The notes: generated by a model not told the origin, from the letters alone. Numbered from the stretch's first letter, positions 4,147-54,780 are shown. The stretch is 64,000 nucleotides of DNA from Octopus vulgaris (GCA_951406725.2 OX597817.1:43028001-43092000); one strand, 5' to 3'. Translations and numbers: made by a program.

Positions 4147-4274
4147 GTATGGCTATGTGGTAAGAAGCTTGCTTCCCAACCACATAGAGCCGGGTTCGGG
4201 GCGGACCAAAGTGTTGTGAATGGAATTGGTAGACAGAAACTGAAAGAAGCCTATCATGTATATGTGTGTGTATG

Positions 4275-4325
<51 letters not shown>

Positions 4326-19354: not shown

Positions 19355-20483
19355 GTAATTTATGATTTTGTTTTAGATTGTATTGACTGCTTTAAAGGTC
19401 ATTCCAACTGTGTATCAGGATCATATTATACAATCTTCTTGAACTCAGCACTGCAAGTTTACAAAGCATTTATTTAATATTATTTACAACCAAGTGACCA
19501 GGACATAAACAGTCTTTGCAAGAAATAAATAATAAAAGTTGTGGCAGTTGTGTACCTTAATAGCTACTGAAAGGATATTCATATTCATAGCTTTGTTATT
19601 TTGTTGATTTGGATAGGAGAAAAGTGCTGTGCCTGCAGATTTTGTCATCAATGTTGTTGAAATTTCTCTTTCAATATTTGCAAGATAACAGCTTCATGAA
19701 AACCACACTGGTAGTCATTGAGGAAGAAGAGGTTCATGGAGATAAAGGTTGTTTCCATCACTTTCATGCTGACTTGAAGCATGAGCTGAAGCTTTCTGTA
19801 GCAGGCCGATGTAAACAACCTCAGTTACAAATCATGATTTCCTGTCTTAGACAAAAGCTAAATGACACCAGGTGGGTTATATTGCTAAACAGAATAGACG
19901 AATGCACTAATCCTATTTTGAAAGAATTGTTCTCATTTATCTTGACATTAGAAACTTTTATCAGTAGTTTTAGTTTTGCTCTTATGTGCTTCAATATGTT
20001 CTAGAAAAGGTACAGGTGCACAAAATGAAAAGTGGCCACACAATGTATGCATAATGTGATTGTAAACATCGGATCTTTACCTTTTAACCGACAGATTTTT
20101 AAAATAATTTTTTGTAACTAAACACTTTCAAATTTCGGACACTGGTAGAATATGTCATATAAAACATCTTTTACTCTTAGCGTTTTTGAGAAAAGCTTAT
20201 ATTTAGGAAGTTATTTCACATTAAAGTTGTCGTATTTCAGTAATTTCAACCAATCAATGACGTACATTCAGCTGAATAAAATTACTGCTGTTGTTTGTCA
20301 ACAACAACTATCAGTGGAATATATTTCGTTTGTTACTGTTATTTATGACATCATTTGTGCATTTGTACTGGTTTTAGGGTTAGAGTTGTCATAAATAACA
20401 GTGATAAACAAAATATATTGATTCTAAGTTTTGTTTCAAAGCCTTTTCTATAACTCAACAAAATGTTTATGGTTTATTTGTAG

Positions 20484-22228: not shown

Positions 22229-24027
22229 CCAGAGAAGGATCCTTTTGCAGCTTCATTTGTAAATAGCCTTGAATAAAGCCATGTATATATAACTTTCATT
22301 TACTCAGTTTTCTTATTCATTTTTGTTGGAAAGTTCTTAAATAAGATCAATTGAGGATAGTTCCATATCTATGTTATTTCAAGCAAAATGTCTAACAGTA
22401 AGCTGTTTTACTACTTCACTTTTCAAGATGAATCTGTACAGTCATTAATTATTGAGTGTTCTATTTTTTTTAGATGAAACTATAAATTGAGCCTTTATTT
22501 TTAAATTATGAGCAATAATGCTCTTATCCCTTATGCCACTAATTTCAGTTTTTGTTGCAGAACACTTATACAACACTTTTTAAAATTGGAGCACCACCTT
22601 TAGTTAAGCAAATCGACCCCAGGATTTATTCTTTGTAAGCCTAGTACTTATTCTATTGGTCTCTTTTGCTGAACGTAAACACACCACCATTGGTTGTCAA
22701 ATGATGTTGGGAGAACAAACACACATATATATGATGGGCTTCTTTCAGTTTCTGTATACCAAATCCACTCACAAGGCTTTGGTCAGCCCGAGGCTATAGT
22801 AGAAGACATTTGCCCAAGGTGCCACACAGTGGAACTGAACCCAGAACCATGTGGTTCGTAAGCAAGCTACTCACCACACAGCCACTCCTATGCCTATTGA
22901 GAATCTATTTCACATAAAACATGGGTGTTGGTGCCACATAAAAAGCACCTGTATCAGTGCCGCATAAAAGTACCTTGTACACTGTAAGTGGTTGGCATTA
23001 GAAAGGGCATCCAGCTGTAGAAACCATGCCAAAACAAACATGGAACCCAAGCAGCGTAGCAAAAGACGTTTATAACGCTATTTCTGTAAATTGCCTCAAA
23101 GAAAGCAGTGTTTATATTAAATGTTTTGAACATAGAAGGTAATCATTTACCTATCAAAGTGTATTAGCATTTAAGGTTAAGTACACATTTAGGACAACAC
23201 TTTTTAACCTATGTAATTTCTAGTGTCAGCTACTATCTCGGGTCAGGTAAAATTTCCCCCATCATTCCTGATGATTTTATTTAATATAATTTATGCACCC
23301 TTAAAGTTTATTTTTATTCTTGTGAGAAAAATGCATAAATTACATTGGTTTATACAGTATATCACACAGGAGAAAAACAAGGCATCATGTTCATATAGAT
23401 TCATCATTTATTTACCAAATTGGAAGTTGTGAGAATTATAAAGTAATTCACAGCAAAAATAGGTTTTCTGTTCTTTAAACCTCTTTGATGTTTAAGATGG
23501 CATATGGACTTATATTCACAAGATAGACCAGCTTTCTGTAATTAAGAAGAAAAAAAGTTTCAATGAACAATGAAAAATATTAGACTTTATGAAAATATCA
23601 AATGTTTAACCCTTTTGTTATAATTATTACGCTGGAACAAAGTTACGTGAAATTCTGAGGTTTTAATTGAGATCACTGTATAAGTTTGTATCACAGAACC
23701 GAGAACAACCTCATTTGGGTTAGTGTCAAAAGCGTTGACGAATTTGTACACATTTTTCACATGAATAAATCAACTTTTTGTGTGGCAATAAATTTTTTTT
23801 AAATAACAGAAAAAAACAAGAGGCTCTAGAGATTGAGATACAAAGGTATTGCAGAAAACTGGAGGCTTTAACTTCTGGACCCTTATTTATGCAATGACAT
23901 ACGAGCTTGGATGAAATTTTCGATTATAATACAGGTGGTTAATTTGGGACAAAGGGTGTTTCTTAGCAGAAAGACTCGACCTGAAGATTATGTAACATTT
24001 AATGATTTCATGTTTAGCATAAGAATA

Positions 24028-24138
24028 AACTCGCTCAGTTTTAACTTTTCTTCAATGAGAGCCAGAGGCATTTACTGACAGCAGGCAACTGTCTGCACAC
24101 TGCACCATCAGACGCAAATTACCACATCATTGCAAGTT
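24028..24138 (-). ncRNA. SNORD16: Box C/D snoRNA U16-like, copy 1
   Basis: Terminal stem AACTTGC/GCGAGTT, C box ATGATGT, guide GGTAATTTGCG(T) followed by D' CTGA, GACAGTTGCCTGCTGTCA element, D box CTGA. Confidence 0.88.
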
Positions 24139-25411
24139 TGATCATCTTCAAGCACTACATAGACAAATATAAATGTAATTAAACGGTAAGCTATTGTAGT
24201 AATGATATATTAATCCTGGTTTTAAGTATTGTGATACATATCTCTGAAACATTACAATATTCCAAGAATAATCAGTCATAAAATCTTAGAATCTGTTATA
24301 TCACAATACTACACAGTGGCTGAGCTACGAAATCCTCATTGGCACTGTTATATTGCAATACTACACAGTGGCTGTGTGAGCATCTCATCCTCGTTGCCAC
24401 TGTTATATCGCATGTTCGGATGACCTCTACTCAACTCTCAACGTCTAGGCTTCTCCCTCTATATCTACGTGTTGGGCTAGTCTACTTCATCGTCTGGGGG
24501 TGTTGACACAACAGAATCATAAAATCACACCAAAGTATGAGGCAAGGATAAATAATTGTCACCATACATATGTTAAAAAGAAATTAGAAAAGCACAAGCC
24601 ATTGGAAAACAACTGATTATTTAACATTGTGAAATCCTCCTATTTAGGCTAGTTTATTAATAAGCTGAATAGACGGCCTTCATACTAAAATCACAATTTA
24701 GGTTTTACTACAAATAGTAACAGTACTTTTAACCACATCTACAATATCCCAGTCAAGATACATTATTCTGCCAGCACACAAACCTAATTACTTTTGCTGA
24801 TGATTATTATGATAAAATTACATCTCTTCTTTCCTGGACAATTTCTTTGCCATAAAAATTTTTATTCCTTGTTTTATCTAATCATATTTTATGCTACACA
24901 TTTATTTTGCTGTACTTTACAATTTATAACCAGTTGGTATTAGTTTCATTAAAAAACTACAATAACAGCAAAACTTTGACTACACTCAAGCTTAATCCTT
25001 CTTTTGCTGGTTACTGTTATGGTAAATAAAGATCATGCAACTTTGCTTATTCCCTTGCACCACATAAAACCAGAGTTCAGTAAGGTATCATGATAATTTT
25101 GTTTGCTTACCATACTGGTATAGGTTGAACAACTTTTAGAGATAGTGTTTTACAACCAGAAGCCTTTGTAATAACTTCTTACAACTTGGTATATCAATAT
25201 TATGTACATCAGTCTAAACCCCAAATTATTAAAATACAAGAATAAACTTTCCATATTACATAAATTTTAAAAAATCAATTTTTCAGTTTCAATGACAGTT
25301 TAAATCAGATTATGCAAATAGTTTCAAACAGTTAAATTTGGGATGAGGTGACTGGTATTGAAAGGCTACCCTGAAATTCACATAACATGTTTAAGTAGAA
25401 GCATTTATATA

Positions 25412-25522
25412 AACTCGCTCAGTTTTAACTTTTCTTCAATGAGAGCCAGAGGCATTTACTGACAGCAGGCAACTGTCTGCACACTGCACCATCAGACGCA
25501 AATTACCACATCATTGCAAGTT
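25412..25522 (-). ncRNA. SNORD16: U16-like snoRNA, copy 2
   Basis: Essentially identical to copy 1. Confidence 0.88.
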
Positions 25523-25997
25523 AGCATCAGGTTTAAACACAACACAGGCATCAATGTAATCAGATGTCATGGTTACAATAAACAGACTTGCTTTTGGTGA
25601 GAAAGAGTAAGAGAAAAATAAAACCATATGGATATTTACCTGCAAATTTTACTAAAGAAAAAAACTACAAAAAGGTCAAGGGATAACCTTTTTTTATTTT
25701 ATGATGTCCATGTCACTAATTGCAATTAATTTTATTACTAAGACCCATCAAGCTGAGCAAAATCACAGTTGTGGCAGATACCAGTGTCAAGCAAATTGGC
25801 ACCTGTGCCAGTGTCACGCAAATGGCACCCACTCTCAAAGTGGCTGGCGTTCCAGTTTTCAAAATAATCTAACCTCAAGTAAATACACTATAAGCATTTA
25901 AATAAACAAACCTATTTTTTAGTTATTTTCAGCTCAATCATTACAGGACTGAGGTTTTGACTTGGAAGATTTTTCAACAAGACGGTAAGAGTAAATG

Positions 25998-26108
25998 AAC
26001 TTGCTCAGTTTTAACTTTTCTTCAATGAGAGCCAGAGGCATTTATTGACAGCAGGCAACTGTCTGCACACTGCACCGTCAGACGCAAATTACCACATCAC
26101 TGCAAGTT
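25998..26108 (-). ncRNA. SNORD16: U16-like snoRNA, copy 3
   Basis: C box GTGATGT; guide, D box and stem intact. Confidence 0.87.
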
Positions 26109-26900
26109 AGCATCAGGTTTAAACACAACACAGGCATCAGTATCTCATCAGTTGTCATGGTTACACTAAACAGACTTGCTTTTGGTGAGAAAGAGTAAGA
26201 GAAAAATAAAACCATATGGAGACCATCATTTGCTACTAAACAATTATCATTACTTCTGCTGAACATAATTATGGTGGCCAGTGTAAGTCATAACATCCTA
26301 TGTGACATAAATTCACCTGCAAGCACATTTATCACTCAGTCCTATGCCACCAGAATTGAACCACTCATATTTATATTCAAAGGAAGATATGAACTCTAAT
26401 CTGAAGAAAGAAACTTTAATCCATTTACCATTTATTCATATTTTGTAATGTCCACTATTAAAATTGATCTGAATATTGTTGAATTTTTGCAATTTATTTT
26501 GGAAATTATCTTGCCTTCAAAACTTCTATGCATACTTGACTATGTTGTTTCTGAAGGGAAAAAATTAATTTACTACCTGTAAATCTTATTTTAAAAATCT
26601 ACAAAAAGGTCAAGGGAAAACTTTTTTGTTTTTTGCTTATGATGTCCATGTCACTAATTGCAATTAATTTTATTACTAAGACCCATAAAGCTGAGCAAAA
26701 TCGCAGTTGTGGCAGATACCAGTGTCACGCAAATGGCACCCATTACACTCTCAGAGTGGTTGGCATTCCAATTTTCAAAATCGTAAATACACTATAGGCA
26801 TTTAAATAAACAAACCTATTTTTTAGTTATTTTTAGTTCAATCATTACAGCACTGAGATTTTGATTTGGAAGATTTTCAACAAGATGGTAGGAGTAAATA

Positions 26901-27011
26901 AACTTGCTCAGTTTTAACTTTTCTTCAATGAGAGCCAGAGGCATTTATTGACAGCAGGCAACTGTCTGCACACTGCACCATCAGACGCAAATTACCACAT
27001 CACTGCAAGTT
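26901..27011 (-). ncRNA. SNORD16: U16-like snoRNA, copy 4
   Basis: Boxes, guide and stem intact. Confidence 0.87.
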
Positions 27012-27484
27012 AGCATCAGGTTTAAACACAACACAGGCATCAATGTAATCAGTTGTCATGGTTACAATAAACAGACTTGCTTTTGGTGAGAAAGAGTAAG
27101 AGAAAAATAAGACCATATGGATATTTACCTGCAAATTTTACTAAAAAAAAACTACAAAAAGGTCAAGGGATAACTTTTTTTTATTTTATGATGTCCATGT
27201 CACTAATTGCAATTAATTTTATTACTAAGACCCATCAAGCTGAGCAAAATCACAGTTGTGGCAGATACCAGCGTCAAGCAAATTAGCACCTGTGCCAGTG
27301 TCACGCAAATGGCACCCACTCTCAAAGTGGTTGGCATTCCAGTTTTCAAAATAATCTAACCTCAAGTAAATACACTGTAGGCATTTAAATAAACAAACCT
27401 ATTTTTTAGTTATTTTCAGCTCAATCATTACAGGACTGAGGTTTTGACTTGGAAGATTTTTCAACAAGACGGTAAGAGTAAATG

Positions 27485-27595
27485 AACTTGCTCAGTTTTA
27501 ACTTTTCTTCAATGAGAGCCAGAGGCATTTATTGACAGCAGGCAACTGTCTACACACTGCACCATCAGACGCAAATTACCACATCACTGCAAGTT
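27485..27595 (-). ncRNA. SNORD16: U16-like snoRNA, copy 5
   Basis: Boxes, guide and stem intact. Confidence 0.87.
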
Positions 27596-28376
27596 AGCAT
27601 CAGGTTTAAACACAACACAGGCATCAGTATCTCATGGTTACACTAAACAGACTTGCTTTTGTTGAGAAAGAGTAAGAGAAAAATAAAACCATATGGAGAC
27701 CATCATTTGCTACTAAACAATTATCATTACTTCTGCTGAACATAATTATGGTGGCCAGTGTAAGTCATAACATCCTATGTGACATAAATTCACCTGCAAG
27801 CACATTTATCACTTAGTCCTATGCCACCAGAATTGAACCACTCATATTTATATTCAAAGGAAGATATGAACTCTAATCTGAAGAAAGAAACTTTAATCCA
27901 TTTACCATTTATTCATATTTTGTAATGTCCACTATTAAAATTGATCTGAATATTGTTGAATTTTTGCAATTTATTTTGGAAATTATCTTTTCATCAAAAC
28001 TTCTATGCATACTTGACTATGTTGTTTCTGAAGGGGAAAAATTAATTTACTACCTGTAAACCTTATTTTAAAAATCTACAAAAAGGTCAAGGGAAAACTT
28101 TTTTTTTTATGCTTATGATGTCCATGTCACTAATTGCAATTAATTTTTTACTAAGACCCATCAAGCTGAGCAAAATCGCAGTTGTGGCAGATACCAGTGT
28201 CACGCAAATGGCACCCATTACACTCTCAGAGTGGTTGGCATTCCAATTTTCAAAATCGTAAATACACTATAGGCATTTAAATAAACAAACCTATTTTTTT
28301 AGTTATTTTCAGTTCAATCATTACAGGACTGAAATTTTGATTTGGAAGATTTTCAACAAGATGGTAGGAGTAAATA

Positions 28377-28487
28377 AACTTGCTCAGTTTTAACTTTTCT
28401 TCAATGAGAGCCAGAGGCATTTATTGACAGCAGGCAACTGTCTGCACACTGCACCATCAGACGCAAATTACCACATCATTGCAAGTT
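28377..28487 (-). ncRNA. SNORD16: U16-like snoRNA, copy 6
   Basis: Boxes, guide and stem intact. Confidence 0.87.
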
Positions 28488-29279
28488 TGATTATCTTCAT
28501 ACAACATGTATCATATTAATGTAATTAAAACAAAGCTGTCAGAGTAACAATATTAACTCCGACCCTATGATGTATTGCAACATAGCTATCAGCAAAAATC
28601 TCACTATGGATAACAAAAGTTACTCCATTTGCTATTAACAATATCCATCCATAAAACCTTAGTTAAGTAAATTGTATCAAAATATCAAGCAGTTATTGGA
28701 TTGAGTTACAAGAAACACCTAACTTCAGATTAAATAACTGTCATCACTGAAAAACCAATCGGGAGTACAGTTTGGCCACCAGATTACTCAAGACATTATG
28801 AACACTTTCACGAAACGATGATGTTCTACTGCAACAGTTATGATGATGACAAATCTATGAAATAGTAGCTGTAAAAGGACTTCCTCAGGTTTCTTACTGA
28901 TTCCTATATATATTTCCTTATTGCCCACAAGGGGCTAAACACTGAGGGGACAAACAAGGACAGACAAAGGGATTAAGTCAATTACATCGACCCCAGTGCG
29001 AAACTGGTACTTTATTTATCGACCCCGAAAGGATGAAAGGCAAAGTCAACCTTGGCGGAATTTGAACTCAGAACGTAACGACAGATGAATTACTGATGAG
29101 CATTTCGCCCGGCACACTAACGTGTCTGCCAGCTCACCGCCTTAATTCCTGATTCCTATATATTGCATCCTTTTCCCCATGAATTGCAATTTCTATCAGA
29201 ATTATAACTGATCCCCTCCATGAAATCTTATAACAACATTTCATAGAGGGGATACTATATCATATTTCAACGTTAAATC

Positions 29280-29388
29280 AACTTGCTCAGTTCCAATGTT
29301 CTTCAAAGAGAGCCAGTGGCATTGTTGACAATAGGCAGTTGTCTGCACACTGCACCATCAGACGCAAATTACAGCATCACTGCAAGTT
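29280..29388 (-). ncRNA. SNORD16: U16-like snoRNA, copy 7 (divergent subtype)
   Basis: GTGATGCTGTAATTTGCGTCTGA; the region before the D box is GAACATTGGAA; unique flanks. Confidence 0.82.
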
Positions 29389-30089
29389 AACACCTCAAAG
29401 AAAAAAAAAACCTTTGAATTTTCCATATCCAAGACTAATTCAATGAGACACCAAATATCCAACTTAATTACTTTATATGTAAATTCCAAAAATAATTTGG
29501 TAGAAATTGATGTGATAATTGATATAACCATAATTTATACAAGTTACTTCTCTGGCTATTTCTGTTGGGTGTTCAAGCCAGTATAGGTAATATTTTGTGT
29601 TGTATTACCACAAGATGAATTACCAACTGCATGCCATTACCAGTTGTCAACCAGGTAGACTCAGAAGTTTGTAGCATGCAAGAGTTTTAACATCACTTGT
29701 CACCAATCCTGTACCTCAACTTAATAGCATGAATTCTCATTTACCACACAGTGGGGTATTTACTATACAGGGCAAGGGGGGGCTCCGAAAGGAGTCTCAG
29801 GGAGTAGCATCCCTGCCTTCCTGAGCTAGTTTTCCACAACATTTCTTAAAGTGATCAACCTTGGTTGCTATGGCATTGAGGTAGATTTAGCCACCCCCGT
29901 TAACGCAGACAAAACATTTGCTCCTTCAATATCATACACTTTCCAACCTGAATCTCTCAGTTAACACACTGAGAAGACCTAAGAGGCACTGCAGATAATT
30001 TTTTTCTACTTAGTTTTAAATTATCATACAAAATAGCACGTAAAATTACAGAATCCTTAACCAAATTTAATGAATTCTTCGCTTCAATT

Positions 30090-30199
30090 AACTTGCTCAG
30101 TTTAAAACTTCTTCAATGAGAGCCAGTGACATTAATTGACAGCAGGCAACTGTCTGCACACTGCACCATCAGACGCAAATTACAGCATCATTGCAAGTT
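30090..30199 (-). ncRNA. SNORD16: U16-like snoRNA, copy 8
   Basis: ATGATGCTGTAATTTGCGTCTGA...CTGAGCAAGTT; unique flanks. Confidence 0.84.
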
Positions 30200-30769
30200 A
30201 GCTCTACACTATAGTACAAAAATATCACCAAACAAAGAGGGAAAAATTCTTGTTCCTGAAATGACAGGAATATGTTGCAAACTTAGCCTTAATAGAATAT
30301 TACTAGTGGTAAATACGTCTACAACAAAATACTTTCTTACATCTTGTATTCATATCATACACCAAGCAAATAAAATCAAAAATCTTTTAATTATTCCCAA
30401 CCGGCATCAATATGGTATTGAAGAGTAAGTTCTCAAATAAACATTGAATAATGTGACACCAGAATATTGAATATTCGTGTTCTAGAATGTGTAATATTTT
30501 TTCACACTACTAGCCATTGAAAACACAAATGAGCTGAGCCAGGTGCACTGAAATGTGAAAAGTCATCATAGCCTATCTCATTAGTTTTAAAAATAAACAG
30601 GCATGGATGTGAGATAAGTTTGCTTTCCAACCACATGGTCTTGAGTTCAGTCCCACTTTGTGGCACTTTGGTCAAGTGTCTACTAATGTCTTCTTGTCTT
30701 GAGACAGCATTCACCCAGGGTGGGTTGAGCTGGCTTCATTCATCCTCAATGCTGCATCTCTCACAAACG

Positions 30770-30985
30770 CAGATCAGGCCTGGCAATTTGAGGCTAACGA
30801 CCGCATGATCTCCAACCACTCCTTATTCCAGCGGCGAATGCCATAGACATAGGGGCCTAGGTTGGGTTCCAGATCAGCCTTGACTGTTGTTAGCCAGGTT
30901 TTTCGTTGTCCACCACATCGCTTTCGCCAACCCTGAAGGGGAGCTGGGGCAATTGCTTCGTAGATGAATTCTGCTGGTCTACTAC
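30770..30985 (-). mobile_element. RTE-like LINE 3' fragment
   Basis: GWRKRCGGQRKTWLTTVKADLEP resembles an RTE C-terminus. Confidence 0.6.
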
Positions 30986-31307
30986 TGTAACCATGAGCCA
31001 ATCAAAACCTTGAAAAGACTTGGCATAAATAAATGTCTGTATGTATTATCATCTCCTTGCCTTGATGTTGTGCAATAGTGGTAAGCAAGTGTCACCATCG
31101 TGCAAGCAGTGTCCATTTCAAATCTTGCATGAAAACATGTTGGGGTCATCAGAAATGTCTGCTTACGATAGAAAATGTGTCTAAACAAATTCCATCTGAC
31201 CCATGCAAGCATGGAAAAATGATATTAAAACAACTATTTTTATATATGTATTACATAAATCTATAAAATTAGCAGAATTATATAAAAATACTTGCAGCAA
31301 TACCAAT

Positions 31308-31413
31308 AACTTGCTCAGTTCCAATGTTCTTCAATGAGCCTGTAGCATTTTGACAATAGGCAGTAGTCTGCGCACTGCACCATCAGATGCGAATTACAGC
31401 ACCATTGTCAGTT
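31308..31413 (-). pseudogene. Degenerate U16-like snoRNA, copy 9
   Basis: C box mutated (ATGGTGC), guide GTAATTCGCAT, 5' stem disrupted; D box intact. Confidence 0.7.
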
Positions 31414-32287
31414 GATGACACAATTAAAGTATCAATTATAATTGAAAAAAATTTACATCCATTTTACAGTTGTTGAGAAAAGAATTAAGCTTCACGTAGA
31501 GCAGGGATCGGCAACTTTTCATCAACTGGAGGCCACATTATACCATTTCCAAGTGGGAGAGGGCCACATGCATGAAATATTACTTGCCCACTTTTTGTTT
31601 CTATATATTTTCTGCAGAAGTCAATTATAATCTTCTTTGGGATTTATTCAAAAGCAAATAACTATTCCCTTTTGTTTCTAATTCAAGAGTTCCATATGAT
31701 AATAAGGACTAACTGCTATGAAAATGCAGGTATGACTCACTTTGCAACCACATGGCTTCAAGATCAGTCCCATTGCATGTCTTTCTCCTACTATAACTCT
31801 GGGCCAAACAATGCCTTTTGAGTCTATTTGATACATTGCATGTTTGGGCACATGCTCCATTGAATTTTGTGTAACCTCCACCACTGCTCAACAGCTGGTG
31901 TTGCTTTGTTTATGCTCCTATAATTTAGTGATTTCAACAAAAGAGACAAATAGAATAAGTACCAGAGTTTAAAGAAAAAAGGAAAACTGAATGAAATTAG
32001 GGTATTTTTGCCATAAATATAATGGGTATTTGGGACTAATGGCTAAAAACACATTACATTATATATTGACTTTATATATCACTATAGTTTTAGCTTTTTT
32101 TTTTTTGTCAAGTTACATTCCAAGTACTACTGTAATACATTGTTATATTTGTTTTACAAAATCACTATATAAACTTTTAAGAGACATAGTGCGTTTTTAA
32201 TTAGAAATATTGTAGCAAAAAAAGTATCGATGAAAAGAACTTACCATATTCTGTATACAAGCAGGCTAAAACCTTCTGTATGTTTTG

Positions 32288-32365
32288 CTAAACGCAATTA
32301 AATGGCGGTTCACCACCATCGTTATATTTTGCAGCAATGACAGTTCTGATGTCTTTCATGGTAGT
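32288..32365 (-). CDS. GIY-YIG-like protein / snoRNA host gene, coding exon 4 (exon continues to a donor at 32245)
   Basis: tttag|TTMKDIRTVIAAKYNDGGEPPFNCV*, then 43 nt of UTR and a G|GTAAGT donor. Confidence 0.75.
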   Translation of the reverse strand, partial: TTMKDIRTVIAAKYNDGGEPPFNCV

Positions 32366-35318
32366 CTAAAAATTACAAAAATACATGTTAGCATATTTAT
32401 TAAGCATATAAATTGTCATTTTGTTAATAATATATTCAGTAAGTACATTAAATAAGAAAACTAAAATATTGTAAAAAATTATTACATTTTCTGATTACAA
32501 TTCAAAATGGAAATATTGAATTCTTAGAATCGATAACACTGTAGAAGCCACTTATTGAGATCATTTTAGGATAGAGCCTTTTAGATAACAGTAACTGGTA
32601 GATAACATTAAGCAGATGATATAACAATATTCTGTGCATGTCTCAGAGCCACTAATTTCAATAACTAAATGATAATAATGATTTAGTAACACTGAACAAG
32701 ATCATCATCAGCTGCTATCAATTCATTTGAAGAGTGGCATAGCATTTTTACTTATTTCACTTGACATGGTCCAAACTTTAGCAGAAATAGTACAATATGC
32801 CAGTGCTGCCTTGACTGGCTCTTGTGTCAGTGGCATGTAAAAAGCACCCACTATACTCACGGAGTGGTTAGCGTTAGGAAGGGCATCCAGCTGTAGAAAC
32901 ACTGCCAGGTCAGACTGGAGCCTGGTGCAGCCTCCTGGCTTCCCAGACCCCAGTTGAACTGTTCAACCTATGCTAGCATGGAAAACGGACGTTAAACGAT
33001 GAAGATGATGATGATTCAATACATTATAGCACTTAGATTTGTACTTCAGGATATCATCATCATCATTTAACATCTGCCTTCCATGCTGGCATGGGTTGAA
33101 AGTTTCTACAGGGTCCATGAATTGGAGAACTGCATCAAACTCCACTATCTGCTTTAAAATGGTTTCTATGGCTGGATGCCCATCCTAATGACAACCGTTT
33201 TACAGAGTGTATTGGGTGCTTTTTTCTTGGGTGCCAGCACTAGTGAGATGGCCATACAACTAGCAAGATTAAAAAGACCCCCTTAACTGAGCGAGAGCAC
33301 AACTGGTGCTCTGACAGCAACAACATTGAGGGTTCCAGTTGATCCAATCAATGTTAACAGCTTGCTCATGAAATTAACAAGCAAGTGGCTAAGCACTCCA
33401 CAAACAGGCATACCCTCAACATAGTTCCCGAGGAGATTCAGTATGATACAAACTGTGACAAGGCTGGCCCTTTGAAATAAAGATACCACTCATTTTTGCT
33501 GGTTGAGTGAACTGGAACAACATGGAATAAAATGTCTTGCTTAAAGCCACAACGCACTGCCAAGAATTGAACTTTGCAACATTACAATCGTGAGCCAAAT
33601 ACTCTAACCACTAAGCCATGTGCCTTCACTGGGTAGGAGTATAGTAAAAAGAGAGGCAGCATAATGCTAGATGTTGAGTGATTGAAGTAGGATATAGGGA
33701 TGGGAAATGGTTTCTTGCTGTAAAGGAGATACAGTGCTACCCTCTTTTACTCGTTTCAGTCATGTGACTGTGGCCATGCTGGAGTACCGCCTTTAGTCAA
33801 GCAAATCAACCCCAGGATTTATTCTTTGTAAGTCTAGTACTTATACTATTGGTGTCTTTTGCTGAACCGCTAAGTTATGGGGACATAAACACACCAGCAT
33901 TGGTTGTCAAGCGATGTTTGGGTGGGGGGGACAAACACAAACACATATATATATATATATACATACAACGGGCTTCTTTCAGTTTCCATCTACCAAATCC
34001 ACTCACAAGGCTTTGGTCGGCCCAAGGCTATTGTAGAAGACACTTGCCCAAGGTGCCATGCAGTGGGACTGAACCCGGAACCATGTGGTTCGTAAGCAAG
34101 CTACTTACCACACAGCTACATAATATAAAGGTGGGTGGGAGTAATTAGGGAGAAACTGGAAAGAGTAATAAAGATGATGACGCCAAGGTATAAGAAGGTA
34201 AATAGAAGAGAAAGTAGAAGTAGATCAGGAAGGGTGGGCAGGTAGAGTTTGCAAGAGCATGGGGTAATTGTAAGAAATGGTTTGAGATGAAGGCAGTGAA
34301 CTGTAAATGAGGACAATACTAAATATGGAGGGGAAGGTGATAAGAAGCAGGGGTGGAGGTGACGACAAGCAGTACAGAAAGGTTGAAAAGCAGCAGCAGA
34401 ATAATAACCCACTGACAACGCCTGTCGTAAGTTTTTAAGTTTTCCAATCAACAAAATCTTTAGCAACAGGTGGGTAACCAGTGGGTTATAGTTTTATAAC
34501 ATAGTCAATTGCTAGTTGTGTCTATCTTCCAACATCCATGATTCAACATGCCGATCCTGTGGAGGAAACCTGTGGAAAAGGTAGACCCAAGAAGACACGG
34601 GACAATGACAAGTGATTAAGATCTTTGGGGATTTACTGGGCATAACTACAGATTTCTGCCCCACCCCTTTGGAAACACCCGAGTGGGGAATAGTTCTCAA
34701 AAATAACCCCCAATTGTTTTCCCCCAAAATTCCTATGTCCTCAGAATCTACATAGTCTGAGGTATATTTGTAGAGAATTTCATTTAAAAATATCCAGTGA
34801 ATTTTCTGAAATTCCCCACCCTCTCATAAAACACTTCCTCCAAAAAAATTTTGCATATTCAGAATCTACATGATATAACACATAGTCATAGAAAATTTCA
34901 TTAAAAAATATCCATTTTTCTGTTTATGATCATCCAAAGTCAGCGGGGTGCAGAAATCTGTAGTTATGCCATGCCATTTACTGTACATGAGAAGACATGT
35001 GAAATTAGTTTCACTGACCAATGCCAGTGACACAGAGTGGTTGGCATTAGGAAGGGCATTCAGCTATAGAAACCAAGCCAAATCAGACTGGAGCCCTGTA
35101 CAGCTCTCTGGCTTACCCATCCCAGTCAGCCCATCTAACCCATGCCAGCTTGGAAAACGGATTGCTAAATGATGATGATATTGATATATATATATTGCAA
35201 ATGTACATTTGTGTAAAATCAACTTGCTTGAAAAATGTTTGTAAAAACAACCAATAATCCTAAACACCTCAAAGCAGACTATGTACATTTTTCCAATAAT
35301 AAACGGAATACAAATTAC

Positions 35319-35600
35319 CTTAAAATCAGGATATGGAATCCACTTCAGAGCAAGCAATCTCTTACGATCGGTCTTAGAAACTGATGACAAGTATTTGGTA
35401 ATTGGTTTGCATGTCTTGCAGGGGCCAAATAAGCGGTTTAGTTCTAAACGGATATCTCCTTCACCAACATACAGCGTTATCCATGTTTTACTAAATTTAT
35501 ACCAGCGAAGTACTATATAAACACCTTCCATGGAATTTGGCCGTGCGTCATACCTCTGAAATGTTGCATTATACAAACTGTCTACGAATGCTTCTGTTTT
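35319..35600 (-). CDS. GIY-YIG-like protein, coding exon 3
   Basis: cttacag|KTEAF...EGVYIVLRWYKFSKTWITLYVGEGDIRLELNRLF...KWIPYPDFK|gtaatt; 282 nt, phase 0 at both ends. Confidence 0.8.
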
Positions 35601-36084
35601 CTGTAAGAAGAGAACATTTCAAAACTTACATTTCACTAAAGATAATGAAACAGATTTTAGCTAAGATCCAAAAGGACATGATACAGAGAAAAAAATAATC
35701 TAGTCAGTACAATCCTGGAATAGCTTCTAAAATTTTTAGTTAACAGTAGAAGTTAATAGTTAGAGTTAACAAACATGAATAACTAATAATTACTAGTTAC
35801 ATCAATAATCATGCAATAACACATCTTTAAAGCTTAAAGTATGACAAGAAACACAGTAACATTTCTCTATTCTACTTGTTAAAAATGAGCTAGATAAATG
35901 AAGAGGGAGCAGACACTTAAGTCTACATAGAGTGATGTATTTCAATATTTAGTTTGAGGATTTGTACATGGCTGCTGGGAGAAAGAGGAACCGCAGAAAT
36001 TCCAGAGTTGTAGCACAGTCCTACATAGTACGATCTGTGCAAAACTCTTAGCATGGAATGTGGGAGATGAAACACAGTATAAAT

Positions 36085-37175
36085 ACAAAGGTGGGCTGAA
36101 AAGTTCATAGGCTATGAAGGAGTGATGCTAGAGTTGTGAAATCTCACACACATAATTTCAGCTCTTCTTAATAACTGCATTGTTTCTTTCCAAGTAAACT
36201 GGCAGTTCAAAGACTTCGAAAGTAAGCAGTAGTGACTTCTCTTGAAAATGAATTTGACCTTGTGGTGCTATCAAGTACCTGCAGAATGAGTTTAGCCACC
36301 AATGGCTTTCATGCTGACTTGGTTGTTACATTAGGGGATGATGCTCCAGCTTTATCAACAGTGCAAAAGTGAACAGCTGAATTTAGGAGAAGGGAGGGTG
36401 TTGAAGGTGGCCCAAGATCTAGACGTCTTGCAACTGCCACCATGAAGGAAAACATTGGTCATGTTCACCAAATAGTGATGGATGACAAATAGTTGACTAT
36501 AAATCAAACAACCAAAGTTATAAGCATATCCTGTGAGAGAGAGTTGAGAATATTCTACACAATGAACTTAGCATGATGAACATTTCTGCTCAATGGGTGC
36601 CACATCTGACAGCTGTTCAAAAGCACATCAAGTTGATTACATCACCGGAAAATGTGATACCGTTTGAGGCAGAACCAGCTGGGTTCCTTGAACATTTCCT
36701 AATCCAGGATGAGGGTTAGGTTCATCACTTTGAACCAGAGACAAAGAGACAATCCATGCAAAGGAAACATCCCTTCTCACCTGCTCCAAAGAAAGCCAAC
36801 ATCATTTCATCTGCAGGGAAAGGGATGGCTTCAGTATTTTTGAAATGCAAAACGCATTGTGTTTATCTACAAAAAGGCAACACCATCAGGACTGCTGTGC
36901 ATAATTGTAGCTTTGAACTGGTTTATCACCTTATTCTCCCAATTTAACACCATCTATCATGTCCCACAACATGAAAAAACACTAGACTGGGAACCAGTAT
37001 CGGTGATAACATAATATCCAACAGGATGAAAGCTCTTTCACCAATGGGATCCAAGCACTGCAACACCAATGGAAGGAGTGTGTAAACCACAAGGGGGACT
37101 ATGTTGAAAAATAAACCTCATTTGGTCACATTCTATGAGTATCTTGGTCAACCTATGATCTTTTCGGCCAACCCC
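36085..37175 (+). mobile_element. Decayed mariner in host-gene intron 2
   Basis: Remnant WVPH, QDE..VHHFEPETKRQSMQ and GDYVEK motifs; TIR remnants GGCTGAAAAGTTCATAGG / CCTATGATCTTTTCGGCC; many stops and frameshifts. Confidence 0.8.
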
Positions 37176-37728
37176 CAGTTAAATGGTCTTCTTTTGGACA
37201 CAATCTAACAAGGTTTCAAACCAACAAATGAGCAACAGCTGGAAATCATAAACAGGCAATTCAGTTAAGCTTCCATATTAGATACAGTTGAAGGATTTGT
37301 TTCTGTCACCATTGCTTTCATGGAAATTCTTAATGGCAAAGAACCAATAGTCAAGAATAGACCAAATCTTAAATAGATCTAGATCTATGGAAGCCCATAC
37401 AAACAATAACTGTCAACTGATCTATGTAAACTAATAACAATGACACAACTGGCCAAGTCTTATCATTTATGTTAACACAAGCTACACAGATCCAAGTGAT
37501 CGGATATTGGTATTACAGGTAAGCAAATGTTTCAAAGCAATATTTTTTTAGTTCAATCACTCAACAACATGCTTGCAAGTCATCCATCTCAATTCAGTTA
37601 CTTCAATCAGTTTGTCGAGACATCTTAAAATGGACTTCATAATGCTATTTTAATTTATGCTGCTTTGCTGAAAAATGGAATACTTTTTCTTAGACAAGGC
37701 ATTTCATCAGCTCATATGCAATACTTAC

Positions 37729-37792
37729 ACTGTCTAATGGAGCTTTTGTTTTGTTTACTTGAGCAGGCGCGATAGTGGCCCCACCAGCTGGC
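37729..37792 (-). CDS. GIY-YIG-like protein, coding exon 2
   Basis: tttctag|..PAGGATIAPAQVNKTKAPLDS|gtaagt; phases fit exon 1 (phase 2) and exon 3 (phase 0). Confidence 0.72.
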
Positions 37793-38737
37793 CTAGAAAT
37801 AACAATAAATATTAGCATCAGACAAGACTTAGAGAAACAAAAAAGTGGATGCATTTAAATAGACTGGTCAAATTAACTGAGAGAAATGGTTAATGAATAA
37901 AATAAGGAAGGATTTACCCTAACTACTTTCATTATTATTTCACTTTTCTAGAAAGAGCAATTGTTCTTTAATAACATTTCTTCTATTGAGATTGATCATA
38001 ATCATTTAACGCCTGTTTTCCATGCTGGAATGGGTTGGACGGTTTAACCAGATCCAAAAAACAGGAAGATTGTATCAAGTTCCAATGTCTGCATTGGCAT
38101 AGTTTCTATGGCTGGATGCCAACCACTTTAACAGTGTAACAGTCTGACATTAATTGAAAAAAAGGAAAAATACATTCGCCTAGAATTTCAGAGAAAATAA
38201 TTAAAATTTTCTCGAAAATATGTTCCTTTAAATGCACACACACACACATCAAGTGGCAAAAGTAGGCTAGAAAAGTTACGAATTGGAAGATTGTTTGGCA
38301 ATATGGAAATTAGATGTGTTGACATTCATTTTTTTAAAAGTTGTCAGTATTAAAAGTTATTGGTATTAATTTATGTTTACATAAGATTAAATTCCAAGTA
38401 CATAGAATTTTGCATTTCAAATTTATTAGAAATTGTGCTAAGGTCGAACTTCAAAGATTTAAGATTATTCCAACATAGTGTCTTATTTGCCGCAACAAAA
38501 AAGCCCGAAGTTCTGACAAAATAATCGGTTTTACTAAGATTGAAACTTGCCATCAAGTACCTAAAAAGAATAATTGTGTGTAAAAAGTGAACAGCTAATG
38601 AAATGAAGTCTGAACTGGAACAAAAGCTCTAGCTCCGAGAGGTAGAATTTCATATAAAGCTAGCAAGAGATAGATCGTAAGATTGCCATATATATATATA
38701 TGTTAGAAGTATTAGGGGTGATGTACAGATTTGATAC

Positions 38738-38932
38738 ATATGAAAGAAAATAGTGTTCAGAATGCTGGATGGTTGTAAAAATATATATTTATTTACATAT
38801 CCCATATTATTTCTACATATTAGCGCTACAGGAGTAGTTGAAAGCGCTTATATGAAGAAATAATATGTGATATGTAAATAAATATATATTTTTACAACCA
38901 TCCAGCATTCTGAACACCTTTTGCTTTCATAT
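38738..38932. repeat. Near-perfect ~195 bp palindrome (hairpin MITE-like)
   Basis: TGTTCAGAATGCTGGATGGTTGTAAAAATATATATTTATTTACATATC is mirrored at about 38869-38916, with a short loop. Confidence 0.9.
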
Positions 38933-39745
38933 ATATATATATCAAGACTTCTCACAATTTTTTAAATCTTATGACGAGTTAAATGAATTGGATTTGGGGA
39001 TAGAAGATAGCATATGAAGTTAAAGCACAAAACCGGTCATTGTAATACGGTCTCGATCGTTTAGTGGGTATTCACCAAAGTTTTATCAATACTTTCTATA
39101 CGGGAAAACTATCATACACGTACTAGCGTAATCATCTCGTACGAGACTTAGGTGTCTATTCAAATGAGTAAAAATATATTATAAAGAAAGAAATACATGA
39201 ATAACTTCCAAAAATCCAAAGTGTCTGGTAATATTGACACGTGACAATTTCTTAGAACTTAAAATACATTCCTCAGTGCAGCTATTTATAATACTTTCTT
39301 AGAAGCCCCTTAAATTTGAGACAAGGGAACAGTCGGTTATACTGAATCTAATACTTTGGTGCTATATTTCATCGATCCGAAAGGATTAAAGTTGATCTCG
39401 GCGGAATTTGAACTCAGAACGTTTATGTGCAAGAATAAATATTTCCTTATAAATTAATAATTATGAGAAATAGATAAAAAAAACAAAAAAAAGCTTAACG
39501 GAATAAATTTGAAGAATGGTGTTAGTTTGAGAATTAAATTTTCAGTAACGAAGATGATCTCTCCTGTTTAACTAATTATTTAAATAGGACTCTGGATATA
39601 TGGAGGAGAAACGAAGAATAAAAGTGACGAGAGTTAAAAAGGGAGTGAGAGAGAGAGAATATGAGGAGACATGTGCTACTTTGGGTGTATGGCCACCATG
39701 TTGTAAAATAAAGTAGAAAAATTACGCGATTTTCGACCAACTTAC

Positions 39746-39780
39746 GGTTTGTAAGCTTGCTTATTCTTTTTGCGTGCCAT
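39746..39780 (-). CDS. GIY-YIG-like protein, coding exon 1 (alternative in-frame ATG at 39786)
   Basis: MARKKNKQAYKP|gtaagt with an in-frame upstream stop. Confidence 0.72.
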
Positions 39781-39895
39781 AGTCATTTATCAATATCACA
39801 AGAGTTGGTCTGCTTTAAAAAGGTTAGAGCAACAAAAAGACAAAGTTTGCGGAACTCTCAGAGAACAGGTCAGGTAGAGATGGAGAGCCACGCTT

Positions 39896-39910
39896 GAAAA
39901 GGAAGGAGGA
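39896..39910 (-). promoter_or_regulatory. TCT/5'TOP-like initiator
   Basis: TCCTCCTTCCTTTTC contains YCTYTYY, about 120 nt upstream of the ATG. Confidence 0.55.
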
Positions 39911-42900
39911 GATAATTGCAACGTTCAACTACGCCTGCGTCATTATACTATGGAATGAAAGAATAGTCAGAATTGCAGAAGTATGGATGGACAGATATTC
40001 GTGATTAATTCTCAGTAAACCACGAAAAGCAATCTCTAGTTTTTACTGATAGGAACAGGACTTTGTCAAATCTCTAGAAAACCATAGTCGACGAATCACA
40101 TGAAATATCTATGTAAAAGAAGTAGGAATTTAAGCGTATTTCCCTACCGACTTTGTTTCCTCACTACTATCACAGAAATGGGAATAAGTGGCACAATTGT
40201 GTAATCTCTAGTTGTTACTGATTGGAACAGGACTTCATTAAATCTCGAGAAAACCATTGTCGACAAATCATATGAAATATATATGTAAAAGAAGTAGGGG
40301 ATCTTTTCACTTTGACCGGCAGATTTAAGTGAAATCATCCGAAGTAGGAATTTAAGCGTATTCCTCTACCAATTTTGTTTCCTCATAACTATCACAGAAA
40401 TAGATATTAGTGGTAGAGGACGAGTGGCACAATTGTGTAGCTATGCCAATTTAAGTATGGATGCTAGTACGACAAATAATTCTAGTTCTTTTCTTGACGA
40501 TCATTTTGTTTTCACTTCCCCGAGTTTTGATTTTCTTTAAGTTTTACAATTGAATGATTATAATAATAATGTTTCCAATTTTTGGCTCGGTACAAGAAGT
40601 TTTTGAGAGTGGGGCAGTCGATTACATCGAACCCAGTTCTTGACATGGACTTATTTTACCGACCCCGAAAGGATGAAAGGCAATATCGACCTCGGCGAAT
40701 GAATGAAAATAAGAAGAATAATGCTCTTGCAGTAAGAATGTTAATTAAATGATGATAATAGCAATAATATGTTAAAATACAAATGAAGAAAACATTATTC
40801 TGTATTGCATAGAGAATTTTTGGCCCATATTCGACAACCACCAGGCTCATTATGTACCAAGGTTGGAAAACATGAGCAGAAGTTTAAAAACTAATCATTG
40901 ACAAAAATCCTAAAAGACAGTAAAAACGGCACAATATACTCCCATATCGCCTTCTTTTTTTTAAGGATTAATTTGTAATCATCAGAATTTAGCGCGATTT
41001 CTTTTCAATTATAGTAAATAGAAATGGAGTTGAGAAGAAAGTAGGTCTATTGCAGAATAACTAAAATAATAATAATAATCCTTTCTACAAAAGACACAAG
41101 ACCAGAAATTTGGGGGGAGGAGACTAGTCGATTACATCGCCCTCGGTGCGTAACTGGTACTTAATTTATCGACCCCGAAAGGATGAGAGGCAAAGTCGAC
41201 CTCGGCGGAATTTGAACTCAGAACGTGCAGACAGATTAAATACCACTAAGCATTTTGCCCGGTGTGCCAACGATTCTGCCCGCAGCGCTCTTAACAAATT
41301 CGTTTTTCGTTTATCGCACAATTTTTGTTTTTGCATATTAGCTATTCTTTTGCTTTCCGCTCAATCACAGTGGCCTATAGGTAACCGCCAGATGTACTAG
41401 AAATAATAACCAAGTCTCCTTCATCAATCGGCAAAAATCAAATCGCTTCCAAACAAATACACTTTTTCTTTAAGCATTTCTATGTAAGAAAGATGGAAAT
41501 AAATTAATGAAATGAAATAACTTTTAAACATTTTAAAAATTACATTATAGACCGAAAGTTAAAAAAGCAGGAGACACGGAATATCAAACAGGTTTTGTTA
41601 AAACATCTATTTGATAATTATATAAAGAGCCATTTAGAAAGTACGAAATTTACTTTAAAAAAGGTTGTGACAAAGGATATAAAGCAGTAATAATTCAGTT
41701 CCAAAACCGGTTGAATGTGTGGTTTACAAGCTCGTTTTGCAACTATGTGCGTTTGGGTTCAGTTCCACTACGCGACCCATTGAGCAAGTATTTACTATAG
41801 TCCCGGGCCGACCAATATGCTGTGGGTGAATTTTGCAGACGGAAACTAAGGGAGCCCGTCGCAAGTATATATATATATATATATACATTTGTGTATTTGA
41901 ATTTGTCTCCTACCACGGCTTGACAACCAGTGTTGGTTTGTTTGCGACCCCATGATTCAAGGGTTCGACAGAAAGAGCCCAATAGAACAAGTACCAGACA
42001 TAAAAATGTCATTGGGGGGGGGGGTATTCTACTAAACCCTTTACAGTGGTATCCAAGTGTGACAAAAGTCCAATGATTGAAACATCTAAAACAGAGAAAA
42101 TAAGTTTTTCCTTGTGGTGTACCTGAGCACTGTATACAATAATTTCATTATTATCTCAGCAGAATTAATTCAGGTCAATAATCATACCAATGTCTTTTAA
42201 TTTCTTGCTTATATTTGATGATCATTTCCAAGAACAACTTTAAATGAGCCCAGAAATAGTACAGGTGAAGAATTTTTCCACCCTTTTGAATGTTATACAT
42301 GAGCCAACAAATTCATCATTGAACCGTGTTGTAGACTTTATACATCACTTTCTGTGTGTCATTTCTTGGAAGTTTGCTCACCTTTAGAGTATTGTACTTC
42401 AGATCCACACCACAACCACTGCACTGTCTGAAATTTTTTAGATGTAGTTGTAAGATGATGAGCTGCCAGAATCATTGGTGACCAGTGATAAAGTCACAAT
42501 TTTGCTTGGGAAAAAAAGATACAATTAATTTATGGTGGCCAGTAATAAAGTCACAGGGAAAAAAGTCACAATTAATTTATGGGATCTAGATGAAACCCCC
42601 TCAGACACACACACACATACATCCCCACCTGGACAAAACCTGTGACTTTTTTTACTTGGATTCGAACCATTAGCACACCAGGCAAAATGCTCAACAGCAT
42701 TTCATCAATCTTTATGTTCTGTGTTCACATTCTGCGAATGTTGACTTTGCCTTTCATCCTTTTGAGGTTGATAAATAAGTACCTGTTGAAGACTAGGAAC
42801 AATGTAATTAACTTACCATCTCTCTTGGAATTGCAGGCCTTATGCCAAAATTTGAAACCAATATTCTAATAGTTGTAACCTTTGTATAACTGTAACGCTT

Positions 42901-49585: not shown

Positions 49586-50430
49586 TAGCAGAATTGCCCG
49601 GCGTTGCTCGGGGCTGAATTGCTTGAAAGTACTGTTAATGATTGCACTGAATTATGATGATTATTCAGGCAAATATTGATATAAGTTTACGGTGGGAGAT
49701 AAGGACTTAACGATCAAACGTGTGCCATTGCATTGTTTTGGGGGAACCAAATTTCTGATGAGCATTATAGGGGCACCAACTTTAAGTTTGAGAAAGTGTG
49801 GTGGTAGTCCGGGGTGCTCAAAGGAATTGAGTACCTCTATTGGATAGTTGATGACGTCCTCTGGGTCAGGAGTTGTATCGATAGACTGATATACATAGAC
49901 TTCCCCAGGAATGAGTTTTAGCATTTCATCATTAATATGGTGAACAGTTTTATTCCTCGGGGCCAGTATAGCCTTTTTGCCAATCCAATCCATATTCTGA
50001 TAATTAGCTTGTAGATCTGGGAACACTGCATCTCTGAGATCAGAAGGCGTCTTAACAATGTTACAAATGGAATCGATGGCAATATTACCATTTTCATCCC
50101 CTGGTATTTTGCCTTCGCCAAGTGCAAGGAGGGTGTGAGGAAATGCTGCTGATGTGATATTACGTCGCATATGAGCACGCATATTGGTGTGAAGTTTGAG
50201 AGTTACTTCCCTTTATTAAAAAAATATGCATTAAAATGGAAAAAAATGATGGTAAATTATTTGTAAAATCATAGACTCATCGTAGACGCGCGCTAATACC
50301 CAGAAGGGCTCGATATGAATCACGACTATAAGATACCCGGTTTTGGTTAAACTGCATCGCAAAATGTGGGAGTAGTTAGGAATCTAAATCGGAGTAGACA
50401 GACACACAACCTTTCTTTTATATATAAATA
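49586..50430 (-). mobile_element. Helitron carrying a PIF1 helicase fragment (ORF 49661-50182)
   Basis: AILAPRN..V..IN, GLPPHFLKLKVGAPIMLIRNL..CNGTRLIV; CCCGAGCAACGCCGGGC hairpin followed by CTAG. Confidence 0.9.
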
Positions 50431-54118: not shown

Positions 54119-54360
54119 TACACACACACATACATACACACACATACATACATACACACATACATACATACATACATACATATACATACATACATATACA
54201 TACATACACACACACACATACACACACACACAGTATTGAAGCTTGAGAACAATCAGATACATTTGCAACACATCTGTTGAAAATATTATTGTTCACACAC
54301 ATACATATACATATATACATACAGACAGACAGACAGATAGACACACACACACACACACAT
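54045..54360. repeat. Compound (TACA)n/(CA)n microsatellite
   Basis: Seen directly. Confidence 0.95.
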
Positions 54361-54384
54361 GATCCAGCATGGCCACAACCTCAA

Positions 54385-54780
54385 GGCTGAAACATATAAA
54401 AGAATAACAGAATATAAATGTGTGCAAAGTACAAGAAATATTAATGCAGTATATGGGGATTGGACAATAAGCGTAAGGCAGTGTCAATGGTGGTTCCAGA
54501 AATCCCGAGCCATAAACTACAGCCTAGAAGACGAGCCTCATCCTGAAAGATCTGTAGAACTCGACAAGGACATCCTGAAAACCCTGGTGGAACAAAATCT
54601 CATCGTAACTGTTGAGGAACTAGCAGAGAAGCTTGGATTTGGTCATTCAACCATTCATTGAGTCCTGTGTGCTATCGGAAAAGTCAGCAAATTGGGTCAA
54701 TGGGTTCCTCACGAACTTTCCGAGTCTAATTGCATGCAGAGAGTGAATGTATGCTTTTCTTTGCTGTCACATCTCACCAC
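54385..54780 (+). mobile_element. Mariner transposase N-terminal fragment
   Basis: RNINAVYG..SVRQCQWWFQK..SLEDEP..ELAEKLG..GQWVPHEL with an internal stop. Confidence 0.85.

Follow-up and report, generated by a model that had tools for sequence, protein, structure and literature searches.

An octopus gene with nine SNORD16-type copies in a 3'-untranslated intron encodes a predicted stand-alone GIY-YIG-fold protein whose nuclease site is likely lost

Animals appear to have only a handful of GIY-YIG proteins encoded by the host genome. Two annotated ones, SLX1A and ANKLE1, are described in humans, together with a dead look-alike inside ANKLE2 (PMC13179284). The catalytic residues of such nucleases are given in PMC3045582 as the Tyr of the GIY motif, which serves as the base, the Tyr and Gly of the YIG motif, a helix Arg, and a metal-binding Glu. 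A terminal Asn characterizes the UvrC/I-TevI type and is absent in Slx1 (PMC1564403). Here we describe a minus-strand gene in a 64,000-nt stretch of Octopus vulgaris DNA (GCA_951406725.2 OX597817.1:43028001-43092000, hereafter the window, with positions counted from its first letter) that encodes a small protein with a predicted GIY-YIG fold and hosts an array of SNORD16-type small nucleolar RNAs (snoRNAs). The preferred reading, to which a probability of about 0.5 is assigned, is that this single-copy, five-exon gene makes a basic, 154-aa protein with a predicted stand-alone GIY-YIG fold whose nuclease site is likely lost, and that the protein is likely a non-cutting nucleic-acid binder made together with the ribosome machinery.

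Like T4 endonuclease II (EndoII, 2WSH), R.Eco29kI (3MX4), the N-terminal domain of UvrC (1YCZ), and I-TevI (1LN0), the octopus protein is predicted to contain a hairpin, a helix, a linker strand, a second helix, and a terminal Asn, and like EndoII it is small and single-domain. Unlike these terminal-Asn nucleases, to which it is 11–14% identical, it has no Pfam match and does not keep the Arg and Glu sites, and its gene is nuclear and intron-containing, with a terminal oligopyrimidine (TOP)-like promoter and a snoRNA cargo. The protein also resembles, at a similar size, small stand-alone bacterial GIY-YIG proteins grouped in ESM Atlas clusters (PF01541 in 12–46% of members, and PF19239), with feature scores of 0.93–0.95, the value of 0.95 being to a cluster with PF01541 in 12% of members, and template-modelling scores of 0.58/0.62 to a GIY-YIG cluster. 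These bacterial proteins, however, show no sequence-level match to it, and all named profile matches are molluscs. The taxa found in the Atlas provide no evidence of gene transfer. The nearest look-alikes are bacterial but lack sequence-level support.

Among animal proteins, Unc-1 of ANKLE2 is similar, by description only, in being a GIY-YIG-like structure without catalytic motifs that is reported to be non-enzymatic (PMC13179284). It differs in belonging to a large multidomain protein and having no clear GIY or YIG motif, whereas the octopus protein stands alone with recognizable motifs. SLX1 and ANKLE1/LEM-3, the GIY-YIG proteins that animal genomes are known to encode themselves, each occupy a separate locus in the octopus genome (SLX1_C on contig C30, the LEM-3 domain on C15). 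Unlike them, the protein described here carries no RING, ankyrin, or LEM domain and matches neither PF21202 nor PF22945. An SLX1 or ANKLE1 orthologue was rejected because this is a 154-aa single domain without a Pfam match and the true loci lie elsewhere. A Penelope-like endonuclease was rejected in view of the single copy, the five exons, an HH probability of 0.15%, and negative HMM scores when compared with 12 octopus copies. The initial annotation of the window, made from the sequence alone, had recognized the protein as none of these three, and this holds. The genome contigs do contain a large family of Penelope-type GIY-YIG endonucleases, many of them in 781-aa frames (148 matches among 150 scored).

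That the gene is real is virtually certain. Four exons had been proposed, with canonical splice sites, matching phases, and a product of 152 aa, and all of this is borne out: the exons have AG/GT ends and join into a 459-nt frame of 152 codons plus TAG, and the junctions occur in RNA contigs. An in-frame ATG at 39786, 6 nt 5' of the ATG at 39780, extends the product to 154 aa, which has 0 differences from the NCBI protein XP_029635761.1 / CAI9720917.1, labelled 'uncharacterized' or 'hypothetical' (Octopus sinensis, O. vulgaris). The gene, initially termed unannotated, is thus already annotated in NCBI, with no function assigned there. Four is the correct number of coding exons but not of all exons, since a fifth, non-coding one begins at 23535. 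The gene is organized as follows.

39746..39901, minus strand: exon 1, with a 115-nt 5' untranslated region (UTR) without upstream ATG; ATG at 39786 (NCBI) and at 39780 (initial annotation); 5' end approximate
37729..37792, minus strand: exon 2, 64 nt, encoding the basic N-terminal arm
35319..35600, minus strand: exon 3, 282 nt, phase 0 at both ends, encoding residues 36–129 with the GIY-YIG hairpin, the 'arginine helix', and the linker strand
32245..32365, minus strand: exon 4, 121 nt, encoding the 'glutamate helix', the terminal Asn, and the stop (ends at 32288), followed by 43 nt of 3'UTR
23536..32244, minus strand: intron 4, 8,709 nt, GT..AG, in the 3'UTR, containing all nine SNORD16-type copies
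23300..23535, minus strand: exon 5, non-coding, with AATAAA at 23412, 23318, and 23312; 3' end approximate

In RNA contigs from four runs, the junction of intron 1 is found in two, that of intron 2 in all four, and that of intron 3 in three. The junction 32245/23535 of intron 4 is present in 4/4 runs of one set and 3/4 of another, i.e., in six of seven distinct runs. Only run X7, which covers introns 2 and 4 only, is recorded as RNA-seq; the type of the other runs is guessed or unlabelled. One contig (X6) extends to 23401, within exon 5, and exon 3 is present in 20 of the 24 listed public runs, from 12 studies. In run X14, 403 exon nt contain 0 differences and 4,841 intron nt contain 38, a contrast with a post hoc P of about 0.04. 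A stop codon within 50–55 nt of the last junction lies in the safe zone of nonsense-mediated mRNA decay. Here the stop lies 43 nt upstream of the last exon junction, so the mRNA would be expected to escape decay, and a single TOP-type transcript could yield both the protein and the snoRNAs.

The intact gene is single-copy in the octopus genome. A decayed copy with stops and a frameshift lies 3.1 Mb away on the plus strand (about G000:C4:39945179-39945555, loci L005/L008). It is identical to exon 3 at 150 of 214 nt (about 70%) and to exon 4 at 55 of 86, scores that none of 200 shuffles reached, and the two exons abut without intron 3. The start of exon 5 follows ~40 nt after exon 4, apparently without intron 4 (3/1000 shuffles; targeted test), whereas exons 1 and 2 have no significant counterpart in this copy. 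By its sequence it is a processed pseudogene of the host gene, and its lack of introns independently attests to a spliced mRNA of some age, which was probably expressed in germ-line cells. Contig C11 has a further weak match (E 0.78), which looked like chance.

The fold was approached with an AlphaFold2 model built on 22 sequences, which describes the 154 aa as a single domain with a pLDDT (predicted local distance difference test) of 87 and a pTM (predicted template-modelling score) of 0.84. Strands are predicted at 60–69, 74–84, and 118–124, and helices at 85–93 and 132–142. A VIA structure search against 48,161 solved chains returned 19 rows, and the first seven are all GIY-YIG proteins, the plant Grx N-domain and PD-T4-3 being of this type as well. 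The best is T4 EndoII (Z 7.1, rmsd 3.2, 102 aligned), followed by Eco29kI (Z 6.5), plant Grx N-domain (6.0), UvrC (5.9), I-TevI (5.4), PD-T4-3 (4.4), and Hpy188I (4.1); the next row has Z 2.4. The model of a 40% identical relative covering exon 3 only (P0025) retrieves six of the same proteins as its top six rows, with Z of 5.6–4.1 vs. 3.8 for the next row. The elements of the fold, namely a three-strand sheet formed by the hairpin and the linker strand, and the arginine and glutamate helices, are present in the predicted models. The GIY-YIG fold that had been proposed therefore appears highly probable, as far as predicted structures can indicate.

Sequence searches do not place the protein in a named family. 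No GIY-YIG family was found at E ≤ 1 in Pfam (12 members searched) or NCBIfam (22 members), and PHROGs (12 members) gave no family named GIY-YIG, its rows being themselves unnamed. The family profile retrieved two rows from the PDB sequences, at E 0.66. A PAZ domain was considered and taken as chance: Pfam PAZ_2 (E 0.012–0.041) stayed under the cut-off, an Argonaute row had E 0.59, and no PAZ chain occurred in either VIA search.

The residue register of the catalytic site was set by sequence anchors against T4 EndoII, I-TevI, and the octopus ANKLE1 exon, as the aligner gave ranges only. It was read in 21 distinct rows, which include close relatives and so are not independent; the 11 full-length rows exclude P0005, whose C-terminus is unaligned. 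In the references the catalytic Arg lies 8–10 residues after the YIG Tyr. The octopus protein has L87, E88, and L89 there, and Arg occurs at these positions in 2, 2, and 0 of the 21 rows. The metal-binding Glu (E118 in EndoII, E75 in I-TevI) stands 8 residues before the helix-end Asn, where the octopus equivalent is R136; no full-length row has Glu at this position (0/11), which is R136 in octopods and hydrophobic or small elsewhere. We infer that the catalytic Arg has been replaced by E88 and the metal-binding Glu likewise (by R136 in octopods). Canonical catalysis has quite probably been lost, and the composition of the Arg site (R in 2/21 rows) and the Glu site (E in 0/11) points to the protein being likely a pseudo-nuclease.

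The losses of Arg and Glu had both been anticipated, no Glu having been evident in the last helix. An acidic residue does occur there: D134 lies at the start of the helix 132–142, although by the register it is not the catalytic one. It lies two residues before the Glu position and is D or E in 10 of 11 full-length rows, the remaining one (P0022) having Ala. An acidic residue at a helix start fits a helix cap, and this is probably what D134 is. Other positions vary in how well they are kept. The GIY Tyr, Y63 in octopods, is Tyr in 7, Phe in 11, and Leu in 3 of the 21 rows; in the YIG motif, represented in octopus by Y79 and G81, the Tyr is found in 18 rows and the Gly in 11. The terminal Asn, N152, is present in 11/11 full-length rows, R55 in 20/21 rows, and K121 in 21/21, and several Trp and Tyr residues are kept.

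Compared with the octopus protein, that of O. bimaculoides differs at 3 positions and that of Argonauta hians has 77% identity. Three octopod proteins were combined into a profile, and its search against 1.84 billion representatives gave 19 matches at E ≤ 0.001, of which 18 were kept as family representatives, a repetitive sequence (P0021, 7 stretches) having been removed as a low-complexity artefact. The named matches are from Argonauta, the bivalve Solemya velum, and the gastropod Babylonia areolata, while the other 15 are nameless; on this sequence evidence, the family has relatives in three mollusc classes. Relatives outside octopods share 31–50% identity with the octopus protein across exon 3, where the reading frame is kept. 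Ten representatives resemble exon 3 read onward into the introns, in protein letters. All 8 representatives that extend far enough upstream have a Gln before the start of exon 3, as would fit a CAG acceptor, and 9 of the 10 have a Val after its end, as would fit a GT donor. These flanking residues, which are protein letters only, suggest that both exon-3 intron positions are shared with the relatives.

Less sensitive approaches added little. Word-indexed homolog searches, which are insensitive, gave two and four matches, and for P0005 only P0005 itself. Searches of plasmids and phages with tblastn returned 2, 10, 2, and 1 weak rows at chance level, none annotated as GIY-YIG. A PF19239 search of the genome found nothing and is uninformative, as its controls were equally empty. 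A differently annotated mussel transcript, known by annotation only, appears in PMC6215123. No published description of this gene was found in a literature search that covered GIY-YIG proteins in octopus and molluscs, domestication, and the locus and accession identifiers, and whose scope excluded supplements and subscription papers, where the gene may be listed. Our verdict is that of a conserved, stand-alone, degenerate GIY-YIG family without prior description.

SNORD16 guides methylation of small-subunit rRNA. Nine SNORD16-type copies lie on the gene's strand in intron 4, seven of them above the Rfam cut-off and two weaker (43.6 and 27.1 bits).

31312..31410, minus strand: SNORD16-like copy 1, 27.1 bits; degenerate, with C box and both guides altered
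30094..30195, minus strand: SNORD16 copy 2, 50.1 bits
29284..29384, minus strand: SNORD16 copy 3, 43.6 bits, under the cut-off of 45; second guide altered
28381..28483, minus strand: SNORD16 copy 4, 55.1 bits
27489..27591, minus strand: SNORD16 copy 5, 50.9 bits
26905..27007, minus strand: SNORD16 copy 6, 52.3 bits
26002..26104, minus strand: SNORD16 copy 7, 54.2 bits
25416..25518, minus strand: SNORD16 copy 8, 52.3 bits
24032..24134, minus strand: SNORD16 copy 9, 52.3 bits, 496 nt from the 3' splice site

The hosting of this array by the gene, as initially proposed, agrees with the intron 4 junction, but the array lies outside the coordinates given, 32245..39910: the copies span 24032–31410, all inside the single spliced intron 23536–32244. 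Their two antisense elements match the Rfam SNORD16 family. In a genome-wide DNA search, 9 of 9 scored candidates fall in intron 4, as do all of the at least 8 matches to the Rfam model among 52 candidates scored. The array has expanded via recent tandem duplications, one block of 1.6 kb being 97% identical. No mini-exon between the snoRNAs was seen among 15 of 24 contig joints, which does not imply absence, given that contigs drop rare forms. One other joint, 30639–31187, has CT..AC ends and comes from one run, with a 24-nt side in repeat-rich bins. Rfam microRNA rows in the gene's introns were far below the cut-offs. In animals there is predominantly one snoRNA per intron, intronic clusters being a recognized class (PMC11028025), and the shared 3'UTR intron is a clear exception to this rule. 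Candidate routes of snoRNA release from the one intron are endonucleolytic cuts, rare unseen exons, or maturation of only some of the copies.

The promoter region contains one feature of interest.

39896..39912, minus strand: pyrimidine tract, 17 nt of pure pyrimidine, TCT/5'TOP-type initiator with candidate C+1 at 39901

The TCT motif in this tract is presumably a TCT-type initiator, and we infer from the sequence that transcription starts there. In the window, only 2 pyrimidine runs of at least 17 nt, this one included, occur on the minus strand, while the plus strand has 12. The back-calculated ends of three contigs fall at 39901, 39921, and 39876; since a contig does not reveal where transcription begins, this is no more than a weak hint. 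TOP initiation is a mark of translation genes and of snoRNA hosts (PMC6954239). Like 5'TOP snoRNA hosts such as ribosomal protein genes and those of the GAS5 type, the octopus gene has a pyrimidine-rich initiator region and intronic C/D snoRNAs; unlike them, it carries all copies in one 3'UTR intron and encodes a nuclease-fold protein.

SNORD16 hosts in other animals were approached by a pattern scan of metagenome contigs, which gave 60 loci, 38 of them holding the two-guide SNORD16 type. In 14 of these 38 (12 distinct contigs, probably redundant animals) an RPS23 exon lies upstream on the same strand.

L038, L042, L045-L048, L053, L056-L058, L061, L075, L077, L080: RPS23-linked SNORD16-type loci, downstream of an RPS23 exon

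A further locus (L064:5460-8067, minus strand) holds five SNORD16-type copies, apparently two and three per intron, the three being ~165 nt apart, in a gene whose exons encode NTF2 and RRM domains in a G3BP-like layout. The SNORD16 host is thus labile between animals, as the RPS23 and G3BP-like hosts indicate, and octopus is not alone in having several copies per intron. The family profile gave 0 matches in 11,506 segments of the 60 SNORD16-pattern loci, most of which are short.

According to the preferred reading, splicing of intron 4 would free the SNORD16 guides for methylation of small-subunit rRNA, and the basic, non-cutting GIY-YIG-fold protein would bind nucleic acid, with the conserved R55, K121, W68, W75, Y105, and W122 possibly holding RNA or DNA. 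The connection of the protein with the ribosome is guilt by association, and a nucleic-acid-binding role tied to ribosome production is tentative, falling a little short of an even chance. Several observations weigh against this reading. Every VIA Z is below 8, and the tool warns that this may reflect a common arrangement only. The structural check proposed initially was supported by the AlphaFold model and VIA but not by Foldseek, which against the PDB found no match at E ≤ 0.001 (EndoII at rank 4, E 0.6) and against viral models gave a best E of 0.021, to a GIY-YIG protein. The residue register rests on sequence anchors, and octopods still have the two Tyr, the Gly of the YIG motif, and the terminal Asn, with D/E134 retained in most rows and R55 and K121 invariant or nearly so, which makes an altered active site possible. 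Among the 22 relatives there are two whose pI is near 6, the transcription start is a candidate one, and, given the change of SNORD16 host between animals, the hosting may reflect only high expression.

Of the competing explanations, the one that survives best, though we consider it rather unlikely, is that the protein is a dead GIY-YIG scaffold that binds other proteins in the manner of ANKLE2 Unc-1, in a role unrelated to ribosomes, and that the snoRNAs simply ride along in a gene that is well expressed. Unc-1, GIY-YIG-like but without the motifs and reported to have no nuclease activity (PMC13179284), sets a precedent, the snoRNA host is labile, and many of the conserved positions are aromatic and could form a core or a protein interface. 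However, the octopus protein is strongly basic (pI 9.8), its N-terminus being rich in Lys, a TOP-like initiator is characteristic of genes related to translation, and the invariant K121 and near-invariant R55 would suit phosphate contacts.

Less probable still is an active nuclease with a rewired site, in which R55 or K121 would replace the helix Arg and D134 the Glu, and which would cut DNA (in repair or against transposons) or RNA. The retention of R55, K121, D/E134, the YIG Tyr, and the terminal Asn would agree with it, and in Hpy188I one YIG Tyr is replaced by Lys and the Glu is supplied in trans (PMC3045582). Against it, Phe or Leu takes the place of the GIY Tyr, which is proposed to act as general base, in 14/21 rows, the YIG Gly is lost in 10/21, and D134 is displaced from the Glu register to a cap-like position at the helix start, with Ala in P0022. 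A bolder extension, by which a mollusc GIY-YIG nuclease of prokaryote type became a ribosome-biogenesis factor that acts on RNA through R55, K121, and D134 and frees the nine SNORD16 guides from its own intron, is a long shot; if it were true, the gene would encode a processing enzyme for its own snoRNA cargo. A non-coding snoRNA host with an incidental frame, or a decaying transposon nuclease, is hardly tenable and largely refuted already: many snoRNA hosts are non-coding (PMC11028025) and Penelope-type copies abound in the genome, but the exon-3 frame is kept in non-octopod relatives with apparently shared intron positions, the gene is single-copy without similarity to the 12 octopus Penelope-type endonucleases, and run X14 shows no exon differences.

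Outside the gene, the window contains the following.

2246-7624, minus strand: COMMD1 exons (Pfam COMMD1_N and COMM), the downstream neighbour
60416-61588, plus strand: exons of a PWWP-domain gene, presumably resembling MSH6, the upstream neighbour in divergent orientation
9594-9687, minus strand: tRNA-like gene (Rfam 58 bits; ARAGORN read no anticodon), then a 17-nt pyrimidine run at 9571-9587
13910-15529, minus strand: 540-aa LINE-type reverse transcriptase frame, by eye
49664-50212, minus strand: Helitron-like helicase piece, by eye
1216-1503 and 54341-54658, plus strand: mariner-like transposase pieces, by eye
19591-20001, plus strand: 137-aa open frame with a weak Maelstrom match (E 0.0067, under the cut-off)

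In general, these data point to an extra stand-alone member of the GIY-YIG proteins, kept by cephalopods, one bivalve, and one gastropod, that escapes Pfam and is catalogued as 'uncharacterized'. The protein offers a small, testable case of the likely passage from a nuclease fold to a pseudo-enzyme, and the SNORD16 array opens the question of how several C/D snoRNAs leave one animal intron.

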